A stretch of DNA of 55,376 nucleotides from Escherichia coli. Lineage in GTDB: Bacteria; Pseudomonadota; Gammaproteobacteria; Enterobacterales; Enterobacteriaceae. Position numbers and translations under genes: made by a program. The stretch's first letter is position 1, and each line of letters begins with the position of its first letter. Shown here in pieces: positions 1 through 23,821 of the stretch. Under the pieces are notes generated by a model, which made no database searches, had not been told where the DNA came from, and worked only from the letters and a program-made list of their open reading frames with translations. The DNA is taken from NCBI RefSeq assembly GCF_003334255.1, contig NZ_QOWU01000035.1; one strand, 5' to 3'.

Positions 1-77
1 AGTTATCGTGAGAGTAATTCATCGGCACGTTAAATCATATCAGGCGTAATACCACAACCCTTAAGTTAGCGCTTATG
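1..77 (-). mobile_element. Terminal segment of IS186 (partial; element continues beyond the window start)
   Basis: Reverse complement of 1..77 reads CATAAGCGCTAACTTAAGGGTTG..., which I recall as the 23-bp terminal inverted repeat of IS186 plus adjacent internal sequence; the cheB reading frame is broken exactly at position 77/78. Confidence 0.65.
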
Positions 78-980
78 GGTCCATGCCCCCGCCTGACGCA
101 TCGCCAACATTCCTGCCGCGCCGTCGTTGCCCATGCCGGTCAGGATCACCCCAACCGCATTACGCCCCGCCTGTTTGGCGACAGAATGGAACAACACATC
201 TACCGAAGGCCGATGACGGTTAACCGCCGGGCCATCGTGAATTTTGATTTGATAATTTGCGCCACTACGCGCCAGCTCCATATGCCGATCGCCCGGCGCG
301 ATATAGGCATGTCCCGGCAAGACGCGCTCTCCGTCTTCGGCTTCTTTAACCCCGATCTGGCAAAGCTTATTAAGTCTGTCGGCAAAAGAGCGGGTGAAAC
401 CGGGCGGCATATGCTGGGTAATTAACAGTGCCGGGCTGGAAAGCGGCAACGGTTGCAGTACGTGACGAATTGCCTCAGTTCCACCCGTTGAAGCACCAAT
501 CGCAATCAGTTTTTCAGAACTCAGCAACGGCCCCGCCTTCAGCGTTGTCGGTGCCGACAATGGCTTATGTGCTGCAAGGCTCGCCTTTGCTGCCGTACGC
601 ACCTTTTCAGCAATCATTTCGCTATACGCCAGCATACCTTCGCGAATACCCAGTTGCGGTTTGGTGACAAAATCTATCGCCCCCAGCTCCAGCGCGCGCA
701 GCGTAACTTCTGACCCTTTGCCGGTCAGGGAAGAAACCATCACAACGGGCATTGGACGCAAACGCATTAATTTTTCGAGGAAATCCAGTCCGTCCATCCG
801 CGGCATTTCAACATCCAGCGTCAATACATCGGGATTGAATTTCTTAATCAAGTCACGCGCAACCAGCGGATCAGGCGCGGTCGCCACCATTTCCATGTCG
901 CTATGGCTGTTGATGATTTCTGTCATGATCTGGCGCATCAGTGCCGAATCATCGACAGATAACACCCTGATTTTGCTCAT
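78..980 (-). pseudogene. cheB: Chemotaxis methylesterase CheB, 3'-truncated after codon 301 by the IS186 insertion (the ORF runs into the IS as ...[12 protein letters not shown])
   Basis: Translation [19 protein letters not shown]... matches the CheB receiver and methylesterase domains; canonical CheB is 349 aa, so the last ~48 residues are missing and replaced by 3 IS-encoded codons. Confidence 0.85.
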
Positions 981-5201: not shown

Positions 5202-5228
5202 TTATCGGCAAGGAAGGGGGAAACTTTA
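5202..5228 (-). promoter_or_regulatory. Sigma-28 (FliA) class 3 promoter for the tar-tap-cheRB operon
   Basis: Minus strand reads TAAAGTTT-N11-GCCGATAA, a perfect match to the sigma-28 consensus, about 30 bp upstream of the tar start. Confidence 0.75.
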
Positions 5229-5254
5229 TTGCTGATGCCACCCGCCGCGAAATT

Positions 5255-5288
5255 GAAATAAAAAACCCGATGCGCAGATCATCGGGTT
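5255..5288 (-). terminator. Intrinsic terminator downstream of cheW (end of motA-motB-cheA-cheW operon)
   Basis: GC stem CCCGAT/ATCGGG followed by a U-run on the minus-strand transcript. Confidence 0.6.
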
Positions 5289-5314
5289 CATTTCAATTGA
5301 GGAAATCAGGAGAA

Positions 5315-5838: not shown

Positions 5839-8730
<2,892 letters not shown>

Positions 8731-8734
<4 letters not shown>

Positions 8735-9618
8735 GCTTCCTCGGTTGTCGTCTGTTGTTGCGGATTTTTCACCGCACGCACATGCTCTTCCAGTTCAATA
8801 AACGACGGACGTTCGCTGGAATAGAGCGTTTTGCGACCAAACTCAACGGCGATAGGCGGTGCGTAACCGTTCAGATTAGAAAGCAGTGTGACTTTGACGC
8901 ACTGCATCATTTTGCTGGTTTCGGCGCTTTTCTGACGTAAAACACTCGCTAATGGGGAAATAAATCCGTAAGCCAATAAAATGCCGAGGAAAGTCCCCAC
9001 CATCGCATGTGCGATAAGCGCCCCCAGCTCGGCGGCAGGACGATCGGCTGAACCTAACGCGTGAACGACCCCCATTACAGCCGCGACAATACCAAACGCC
9101 GGAAGTGAGTCCCCGACCAGCGCCAGACTGTTCGCCGGGACTTCTGCCTCGCTTTCGTGCGTCTCAATCTCTTCATCCATCAGGGCTTCGATTTCGAAGG
9201 TGTTCATGTGACCGCTGATAATCAGGCGCAGATAATCGACGATAAAATCAAGCATGACGCTATCCGCGAGGATGCGTGGGTAGCTGGCGAAGATCTCGCT
9301 CTCACGGGGATTTTCAATATCACGTTCCAGCGAAAACATCCCCATCTGCCGCGATTTCGCCATCAACCGATAAAGCAGAGCCAGCAGATCCATATACATT
9401 GCTTTGGTGTATTTGGAGCGACGAAACAGCAACGGCAGCGCCTTCAGCGTGCCTTTAATCGCTTTGCCATTATTGCCGACGATAAACGACCCAATCCCTG
9501 CACCGGCAATAATCACCAGTTCAGCGGGTTGATAGAGTGCTCCAAGGCTTCCACCGGTCATCAAATAACCGCCGAAAACTGTACCGAGAACAACCAGGTA
9601 ACCTAATAAGATAAGCAC
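8731..9618 (-). CDS. motA: Flagellar motor stator protein MotA
   Basis: 295-aa [37 protein letters not shown]...; 4-nt overlap with motB. Confidence 0.96.
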
Positions 9619-9684
9619 GACATCATCCTTCCACTGTTGACCATGACAGGATGTTCAGTCGTCAGGCGTTAACGCGCGATTGGG

Positions 9685-9719
9685 GCAAAAAAAAGCAGCG
9701 GTACGTCGTTACCGCTGCT
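9685..9719 (-). terminator. Intrinsic terminator downstream of flhC
   Basis: Stem GCAGCGGTA/TACCGCTGC followed by an 8-nt U-run on the minus-strand transcript, 25 bp after the flhC stop. Confidence 0.65.
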
Positions 9720-9744
9720 GGAATGTTGCGCCACACCGTATCAG

Positions 9745-10323
9745 TTAAACAGCCTGTACTCTCTGTTCATCCAGCAGTTGTGGGATAATATCGGCAGGAT
9801 TCTGGGAAAGTTTACGTCTTTTTACTGCCCGGGATGGCGGTTGACATAAGCTGCAGGCAAAGCTGCCAACAGGCTGGTGAGCGTGGGTAATAAAATTGCC
9901 GCCGCAGCAGTTGCAGCTGGAAAGTTGCAGTAATCCACTTTCAACAAACCGCACCAATGTCCAGGCACGGGTTAATGCCAGCAGCGGTCCTTCTTCTGCT
10001 TGCGGGCACTGTTCAAGGTATAAACGGTAGGCTTTGATCACCGCGTCGACGCCATTACACAAACCGGTTTTCAGTAAAAACTGCCATGCATTACAGAACA
10101 TCGAAGCATGAACGTTTTGTTCCCAGGTCATAAACCAGTCGGTTGAGAATGGCAGCATGCCTTTCGGCGGTGGGCTTCCGCGCAGTTCTTTATAAAGTTT
10201 TATCAGGCGTCCGCGACTTAACTGTGTTTCGCTTTCAAGCATCTGCAAAAGAGCGCCCAAGGTGATCAATTCCATTGCCAGCTGAATATCCCGCGCTTCC
10301 TGAACAATGCTTTTTTCACTCAT
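9745..10323 (-). CDS. flhC: Flagellar master regulator subunit FlhC
   Basis: 192-aa [27 protein letters not shown]...; Cys-rich zinc site present. Confidence 0.96.
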
Positions 10324-10325
10324 GA

Positions 10326-10676
10326 TCAGGCCCTTTTCTTGCGCAGCGCTTCTTCAGGCTGATTAACATCATTCAGCAAGCGTGTTGAGAGCATGATGCC
10401 GGTATGAATTTGCTGGAGATCGTCAACGCGGGAATCTTGCGTCAACTGAGTAATCGTCTGGTGGCTGTCAAAACGGAAGTGACAAACCAGCTGATTGGTT
10501 TCTGCCAGCTTAACCATTTGCGGAAGAGTCAGTGCCGCTAATGTTGTCGCCATTTCTTCATTTATGCCGAGACGAAACATAGCGGACGCTTTGTCCTGAA
10601 CAATCAGACGCTGTGCAAGTAGTAAATATGACAAGTTGATGTCATAAATGTGTTTCAGCAACTCGGAGGTATGCAT
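10326..10676 (-). CDS. flhD: Flagellar master regulator subunit FlhD
   Basis: ORF trimmed to [24 protein letters not shown]... (116 aa). Confidence 0.94.
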
Positions 10677-11455
10677 TATTCCCACCCAGAATAACCAACT
10701 TTATTTTTATGCGGTTTCACCGCACCCCGTGATGTCGCCGGGAAGCCCCGGTAAAAAATAATTAGCATTAGAATAGTTGCGATAAGCTGCAATAAGCAGA
10801 GCCACCTTTTTGGTTTAATAAGTCCTTACAAATAGAAGGGGGTCTTTACACTTATCTAAGATTTTTCCTAAATCGACGCAACTGTACTCGTCACTACACG
10901 CACATACAACGGAGGGGGGCTGCGATTTTCAATAATGCGTGATGCAGATCACACAAAACACTCAATTACTTAACATAAATGTATAAGTCATACTTTTGTT
11001 TTGGGTGTATTTCAATCTGTTAAAAAGTTTTTCGCTACGCTAGCAAGCAAAAATGAAACAGGAATAATCGAAATGGGATGTTGCGCACAGTTAAAATAAC
11101 TCACCGTAAATAATCATCTGCTATAAATAATCACTTTCATGCAATACCAGATAAGCTATTTTTAAACAGACACTTACCGCACAACAAACTAATTAAATAC
11201 AAAGAAAGGCAACAATCAACTTTATGTTAATAAAATGTTTTGCATATATTAACCACTTGTTTAATGCGGAGAATCAGTACATTATTTTCTTATAATTACA
11301 GTTGAAATCATATGATCACCGAGAGTGATTGATTAATTGTCTTTACTAATAATCAGACTAATATTTACCTGTTTGACTGAGTTGGGATTGCGTCGTTTCT
11401 CCATTAGGAGTAAAGCTTTAATGTCACCTGAAGTTCACAGAATAAGGAACAGGTT
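10677..11455 (-). promoter_or_regulatory. flhDC class 1 promoter, long 5'UTR and upstream regulatory region (shared divergent region with uspC)
   Basis: About 780 bp of AT-rich non-coding DNA upstream of flhD with no ORF of note; established as a multi-regulator input region. Confidence 0.7.
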
Positions 11456-23518: not shown

Positions 23519-23605
23519 TGGTACCCGGAGCGGGACTTGAACCCGCACAGCGCGAACGCCGAGGGATTTTAAATCCCTTGTGTCTACCGATTCCACCATC
23601 CGGGC
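23519..23605 (-). tRNA. leuZ: tRNA-Leu (anticodon UAA)
   Basis: Minus strand reads GCCCGGATGGTGGAATCGGTAGACACAAGGGATTTAAAATCCCTCGGCGTTCGCGCTGTGCGGGTTCAAGTCCCGCTCCGGGTACCA: cloverleaf with long variable arm and encoded CCA. Confidence 0.92.
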
Positions 23606-23617
23606 TCGGGAAGAAAG

Positions 23618-23691
23618 TGGAGGCGCGTTCCGGAGTCGAACCGGACTAGACGGATTTGCAATCCGCTACATAACCGCTTTGTTAACGCGCC
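23618..23691 (-). tRNA. cysT: tRNA-Cys (anticodon GCA)
   Basis: Minus strand reads GGCGCGTTAACAAAGCGGTTATGTAGCGGATTGCAAATCCGTCTAGTCCGGTTCGACTCCGGAACGCGCCTCCA. Confidence 0.92.
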
Positions 23692-23745
23692 AAATTCTTC
23701 AGGCCTTTCAACCAGACATCCGCTTGACGCCGATGTCTTTTAAAC

Positions 23746-23821
<76 letters not shown>

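Follow-up and report, generated by a model that had tools for sequence, protein, structure and literature searches.

A MotR gene with a variant seed base and a short fliC 3′UTR that does not classify as FliX in an Escherichia coli flagellar gene cluster

Does an Escherichia coli flagellar gene cluster interrupted by insertion sequences still encode the small RNAs (sRNAs) that derive, in K-12, from untranslated regions of flagellar mRNAs, and, if so, would those RNAs be expected to act? The question is raised by a stretch of 55,376 nucleotides, hereafter the window. A reading made from the sequence alone placed MotR in the motA 5′UTR and FliX in the fliC 3′UTR, held both regions to be intact, and proposed that both RNAs could still act if the flagellar regulon were transcribed. 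That MotR and FliX are described sRNAs with these origins is right (PMC10578931); the remainder of the claim needs revision, most of all for FliX.

Both RNAs come from the work of Melamed et al. (2023, eLife 12:RP87151; PMC10578931), where four sRNAs are described. MotR is a ~95-nt, sigma-28-dependent, Hfq-binding RNA transcribed from the motA promoter within flhC; the majority of transcripts end at the flhDC terminator, and read-through yields the motAB-cheAW mRNA (PMC10578931). In K-12, MotR has pairing partners in fliC and within the coding sequence of rpsJ, and raises S10 levels as well as flagellar gene expression; its function is abolished by the M1 mutation, in which G46, U47 and G48 are changed (PMC10578931). 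FliX (~200 nt, with a ~100-nt form, FliX-S) is processed from the fliC 3′UTR, carries REP sequences, and represses S10-operon and fliC mRNAs through a seed, GUCAGCAACGUGC, in which the FliX M1 mutation turns GCA into CGU (PMC10578931). On northern blots, the levels of both RNAs drop in a fliA deletion, that of MotR strongly (PMC10578931).

As references, we took the sequences of MotR, FliX-S, rpsJ and rpsS and their M1 forms from supplementary file 3 of that paper (PMC10578931), along with the K-12 RefSeq annotation, which lists motR (b4828, 95 nt) and fliX (b4827, 195 nt) at syntenic positions. Rfam 15 contains no MotR or FliX family, and no Rfam family covered either locus, whether scored against gathering cutoffs or searched with E-values as high as 1; the identification therefore rests on the published oligonucleotides and gBlocks and on the K-12 annotation. 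The sole weak Rfam match, to mir-283 (18 bits, E = 0.7), was dismissed as chance.

The open reading frame listing and tblastn searches with K-12 proteins identify the window as E. coli-type flagellar regions II and IIIa/b (Table 1), in which all flagellar genes other than cheB and fliR are full length and free of gaps (tblastn). The top complete E. coli genome is 99.5% identical over the first 25 kb of the window, and the best E. coli matches all begin at window position 77. Several further features lie outside the two sRNA regions. A full-length Rfam match to C0465 RNA (111.6 bits) occupies 5218-5295 on the plus strand, between tar and cheW. Three tRNA genes at 23522-23821 on the minus strand correspond by K-12 synteny to leuZ, cysT and glyW, which implies that the 3′ETS-leuZ sponge RNA adjoins them. 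A ~3-kb segment at 41275-44304 has no counterpart in the K-12 yedK-intG interval, and its flanks align at 97-98%.

Table 1. Coordinates of the flagellar genes, sRNA-related elements and insertion sequence ends in the window
Feature	Position	Strand	Remarks
IS186 end interrupting cheB	1..79		100% identical to K-12 IS186A positions 80-2
cheB′, cheR, tap, tar, cheW, cheA, motB, motA, flhC, flhD		minus	in that order
motB	7808-8734	minus	
motA	8731-9618	minus	GTG start codon 9618-9616
Remaining motA 5′ leader	9619..9686	minus	K-12-identical; RBS GGAAGGA
motR (95-nt MotR sRNA)	9781..9687	minus	U49/C54 allele; matches published in vitro template
MotR T run after terminator stem	9693-9687	minus	about eight T
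MotR/flhDC intrinsic terminator hairpin	9694..9719	minus	10 pairs, 6 G-C
MotR nt 43-54, rpsJ-pairing stretch	9728..9739	minus	ACGGUGUGGCGC; includes M1 positions 46-48
MotR A49U	9733	minus	U here, A in K-12; adjoins M1 positions 46-48
flhC	9745-10323	minus	stop codon 9745-9747
MotR transcription start	9781	minus	+1 A
motA/motR promoter -10	9788..9795	minus	GCCGATAT; read from sequence
motA/motR promoter spacer	9796-9806	minus	11 nt
motA/motR sigma-28 class 3 promoter -35	9807..9814	minus	TAAACTTT; inside flhC coding sequence
flhD	10326-10685	minus	
fliZ, fliA, fliC		minus	farther along the window
fliA	32773-33492	minus	GTG start at 33492
fliA upstream regulatory region and 5′UTR	33493..33614	minus	not fliC 3′UTR
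fliC 3′UTR, entire	33615..33655	minus	41 nt, UGGCCUUAACCUGCCUGACCCCGCUACCGGCGGGGUUUUUU; no REP, no FliX seed
fliC intrinsic terminator hairpin	33619..33639	minus	sole part common to K-12 FliX
fliC	33656..34705	minus	H4-type flagellin, 349 aa
fliDST, then fliE through fliR′		plus	
fliR, truncated	54645..55304	plus	ends after residue 218/261; cut ~55300, in last hydrophobic segment
IS1 end interrupting fliR	55300..55376		100% identical to K-12 IS1H positions 768-692

The motR locus and its seed allele

The motR locus has the genomic position of its K-12 counterpart (b4828) and is identical to it in the sigma-28 promoter, the start site, the terminator and the U tail. It lies on the motA strand, across the 3′ end of flhC and the 5′ leader of motA, with MotR nt 1-37 overlapping the end of flhC and the flhC stop codon forming nt 35-37. 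The span proposed for it from the sequence alone (9600-9760, specified as 9619..9744) is thus placed on MotR and misses the 5′ end of the RNA and the promoter inside flhC. That promoter, TAAACTTT-N11-GCCGATAT, and the published +1 are identical to those of K-12, and the promoter hexamers do not vary across 10 E. coli genomes. Over 9854..9619, the window differs from the published 236-nt K-12 gBlock by the engineered M1 bases and by one natural SNP, and in the alignment of MotR itself 94 of the 95 bases agree with the published sequence, the sole difference being A49U. The hairpin at 9719..9694 is the only terminator-like site in 9550-9900, and it therefore also serves flhDC; its stem, followed by the U tail, is folded in the predictions for every allele. 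With position, promoter and start site, sequence match and terminator with U tail all in agreement, the motA-leader feature is, as judged from sequence, a member of the MotR family, that is, a predicted gene for a known Hfq-binding sRNA. In kind, the biology of the window is nothing new: its MotR is a copy of a published sRNA at the textbook position. The terminator itself varies elsewhere in the species, given that in E. coli 20Y000092 (NZ_CP138217.1) an 11-nt deletion takes the 3′ half of the MotR/flhDC terminator stem together with the T run, which should abolish both termination and MotR formation.

The claim that the MotR region is intact holds for the location, the terminator hairpin and all bases save one, and is not strictly true of the seed, where base 49 is U instead of the K-12 A. 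The M1 triplet, G46-U47-G48, is conserved, and the window carries the U49/C54 haplotype in a fliR::IS1 background, unlike K-12. Comparison of the rpsJ and rpsJ-M1 gBlocks, and of the MotR and MotR-M1 gBlocks, defines the rpsJ target site as 5′-GCGCUUCACUGU-3′ (codons E-R-F-T-V), which pairs with MotR nt 54-43 such that, in K-12, A49 stands opposite a U in the middle of the duplex; U49 places a U-U mismatch at the center of the predicted 12-bp duplex. The seed-rpsJ duplex has a predicted energy of -22.4 kcal/mol with the K-12 allele, of -18.7 with that of the window, of -15.1 with the U49/A54 haplotype and of -10.3 with M1. Hence the predicted effect of A49U is modest, a weakening by about 3.7 kcal/mol relative to K-12 that is a difference in computed energy only and that is calculated on a 12-bp model not fully validated, because the compensatory rpsJ-M1 mutation did not restore binding of MotR-M1 and MotR binding seems not to be confined to one site (PMC10578931). 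By prediction, U49 leaves the seed at least as accessible. For pairing of MotR with fliC, several sites of nearly equal predicted energy shift between alleles, and M1 scored well too, so that we draw no conclusion from them.

U49 is a widespread natural allele. Allele counts by short-query megablast in 5377 locus-bearing complete E. coli genomes show the K-12 MotR 80-mer as an exact match in 2900, with A49 in ~54%, and the window 80-mer in 587. A 40-mer requiring U49 and C54 occurs in 1161 genomes (~22%), and one requiring U49 and A54 in 1137 (~21%), including ST131-type H4 strains; thus, at least 43% of the 5377 genomes have U49, and half of these also have C54A. Six close relatives that share the FlhC allele of the window have an identical MotR. 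Among sampled non-K-12 MotR loci, U49 is present in eight of eight, and a scan of species representatives with the MotR seed/terminator pattern recovered one locus, in a divergent Escherichia, with the U49/A54 haplotype. This distribution points to U49 as the ancestral base and to the A49 of K-12 as derived.

The fliC 3′UTR of H4-type strains

The second locus presents a different picture. The flagellin gene of the window is of the H4 type, its central 601 nt being 99.8% identical to those of O104:H4 and ST131-type genomes, with the central part at least 99% identical in 759 genomes. The interval 33493..33655, taken in the sequence-only reading to hold an intact FliX next to the fliC terminator, does contain that terminator, the single intrinsic one in the interval (stem 33639..33619). 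The rest does not stand, given that the fliC 3′UTR amounts to only 41 nt, and that, when the stretch between the fliC end and the fliA start is aligned globally, ~156 nt of the 195-nt K-12 FliX have no counterpart; both REP elements and the seed GUCAGCAACGUGC fall within this gap. From ~33595 down to the fliA start, the window is identical to K-12. FliX-S aligns to the window by its terminator alone (33648..33615), and that terminator departs from the K-12 one by a single loop-side substitution and a T run of 6 rather than 7 bases. No match to the FliX seed occurs anywhere in the window with up to 3 mismatches allowed, and on this ground a second copy of FliX elsewhere in the window was rejected.

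Measured against K-12 FliX (b4827), the window sequence has the same place, directly after the fliC stop codon and ending at the fliC terminator; it has a homologous terminator hairpin, and it starts with a loose likeness to the first 20 to 26 nt or so of the K-12 RNA. Without counterpart are the length (41 nt vs ~195 nt, or ~100 nt for FliX-S), the REPs, the SM043 probe site, and the seed with its M1 site, through which FliX pairs with rpsS, rplC, rpsQ and fliC. As two of the defining features, namely length with REPs and seed, are lacking, the locus is not to be classed as FliX, and, to judge by its sequence, FliX is absent here as a regulator. By the refuting condition that the sequence-only reading had set for its own claim, divergence in the seed region, the claim of an intact FliX falls.

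The short 3′UTR is by no means private to this strain. O104:H4 FDAARGOS_349 and ST131 strain 81009 have the same 41-nt architecture and the same distance to fliA, in nearly identical sequence (the terminator loop differs at one or two bases, and there is one more substitution immediately downstream), although their MotR haplotype is U49/A54 as opposed to the U49/C54 of the window. In 723 genomes, the identity to a 308-nt stretch of the window that includes the short 3′UTR is 99% or higher. O157:H7 has a long, K-12-like fliC 3′UTR. Megablast detects a FliX seed segment like that of K-12 in 2874 of 5426 genomes, and the identity reaches 99% or more in just 370 of these. FliX is, on this comparison of sequences, polymorphic in the species and tracks the fliC allele. 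In papers mentioning these sRNAs, we found neither the absence of FliX from H4 lineages nor the dimorphism of the MotR seed.

Some variation around these elements can be recorded in passing. The FliX seed of O157:H7 ECP17-1298 reads GUUAGC in place of GUCAGC, adjoining the M1 triplet. In the window, the fliC-fliD intergenic region (34706-34952) is partially similar to that of K-12, with a 19-nt gap, and TAAAGGTT and GACGATAA, the two elements of the fliC sigma-28 promoter, are conserved around a diverged spacer.

Insertion sequences and the expected state of sigma-28

The lesions in cheB and fliR reported from the sequence alone were confirmed as the ends of an IS186 and an IS1 element, respectively. 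In cheB, the cut lies at window positions 77-79, after residue 301 of 349. The window stops within both elements, which is compatible with simple insertions as well as with larger rearrangements, and its appearance is that of an assembly contig with repeats at both ends. Among complete E. coli genomes, none has the identical fliR::IS1 junction, and 11 have IS1 in or beside fliR at other positions. As these elements disrupt fliR and cheB, the strain is, on the sequence, very likely non-flagellate.

FliR belongs to the core of the FliPQR export gate, and its loss should therefore block completion of the hook-basal body. FlgM would then be retained and sigma-28 inhibited, such that MotR, and fliC with its 3′UTR, would be transcribed at a low basal level. 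In K-12, export of FlgM, and hence release of sigma-28, awaits the complete hook-basal body (PMC10578931). Thus, low expression of MotR is expected because of its dependence on sigma-28 and because the truncation of fliR would block FlgM export, and the earlier proposal that the sRNAs could still act if the regulon is transcribed overlooks this dependence. The FlgM checkpoint is leaky, and some sigma-28 activity, and with it some MotR, may persist; the window does not reach flgM, nor the flg and flhBA genes.

The upstream regulators present their own variation. The region upstream of flhD (10974-10981) has no IS1, unlike that of MG1655, and its flanks join cleanly; in MG1655, the IS1H insertion raises flhDC expression. 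Compared with K-12, FlhC carries R25L (codon 25, window position 10250) and FliA carries T188M (codon 188). The exact FlhC-L25 protein is present in 319 blocks of public assemblies, and L25 is therefore a natural lineage allele, not a private lesion; a 71-nt megablast query for R25L was uninformative, as two nearby synonymous SNPs break the 28-nt word.

Weighing the readings

Our preferred reading, to which we assign a probability of roughly 0.85, is that the motA leader holds a MotR gene, that the second locus is not FliX, and that fliR::IS1 would result in low sigma-28-driven transcription. The view that both MotR and FliX are intact, and able to act provided that the regulon is transcribed, draws on the 94 of 95 conserved MotR bases with an unchanged promoter and terminator, as well as on the presence of the fliC terminator hairpin, flhD, flhC, fliA and the fliC sigma-28 promoter elements. 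It appears highly improbable, however, in the face of the loss of ~156 nt of FliX with the seed and both REPs, the SNP in the MotR seed, and a fliR::IS1 lesion that should keep sigma-28 inactive. A somewhat better, although still poor, case can be made for functional replacement of FliX, in which the H4 fliC 3′UTR would yield an Hfq-binding fragment of its own with a different seed, either the terminator preceded by ~20 bases or a longer fragment cleaved from the coding end of fliC. A hairpin followed by a U tail is the usual Hfq-binding module, and the 41-nt UTR keeps a strong, G+C-rich hairpin with such a tail; judging from this, a short H4 3′UTR fragment could bind Hfq. Furthermore, the first bases of the UTR resemble the first ~26 nt of K-12 FliX, and the short-UTR architecture is conserved in H4 genomes. 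Nevertheless, the stop codon and the hairpin are separated by just ~18 unpaired bases, predicted pairing with the rpsS site targeted by FliX is weak and scattered (-14.7 kcal/mol for a 61-nt stretch vs -20.1 kcal/mol for the 25-nt K-12 seed region), and we found nothing in the literature on an H4 fliC 3′ fragment.

The remaining alternative, that the hairpin at 9719..9694 is solely the flhDC terminator and that any MotR-like activity is owed to the 3′-terminal part of the flhDC mRNA rather than to transcription from the sigma-28 promoter, seems comparably unlikely. We know of no processing site that would release MotR from flhDC mRNA. Since MotR begins within flhC and stops at the terminator of flhDC, the whole of MotR nt 1-95, seed and U tail included, is found at the 3′ end of every flhDC transcript, and flhDC, being class 1, does not need sigma-28; yet the strong fall of K-12 MotR in the fliA deletion implies that processing of flhDC mRNA contributes little there (PMC10578931). 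The evidence is best accommodated, then, by the preferred reading, that of a sigma-28-dependent MotR gene accompanied by a fliC 3′UTR that is not FliX, in a background where the transcription of both would be low.

Beyond this one strain, it is conceivable, although we would put it at somewhat less than an even chance, that the MotR/FliX circuit of K-12 is not universal in E. coli and that the strength of the link between flagella and ribosomes depends on the lineage. Should this be the case, FliX would be an accessory sRNA tied to particular fliC alleles, and H4 lineages, including ST131 and O104:H4, would be without the FliX brake on S10-operon and flagellar expression. The MotR seed is dimorphic, and its predicted pairing with rpsJ weakens in steps, from -22.4 through -18.7 to -15.1 kcal/mol. 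A fliC 3′UTR cannot be presumed to encode FliX, as H4-type strains are without its regulatory part, and the K-12 MotR seed is to be viewed as one of two common alleles. Before the MotR/FliX model is transferred to ST131, O104:H4 or O157:H7, the alleles that these strains carry need to be checked.
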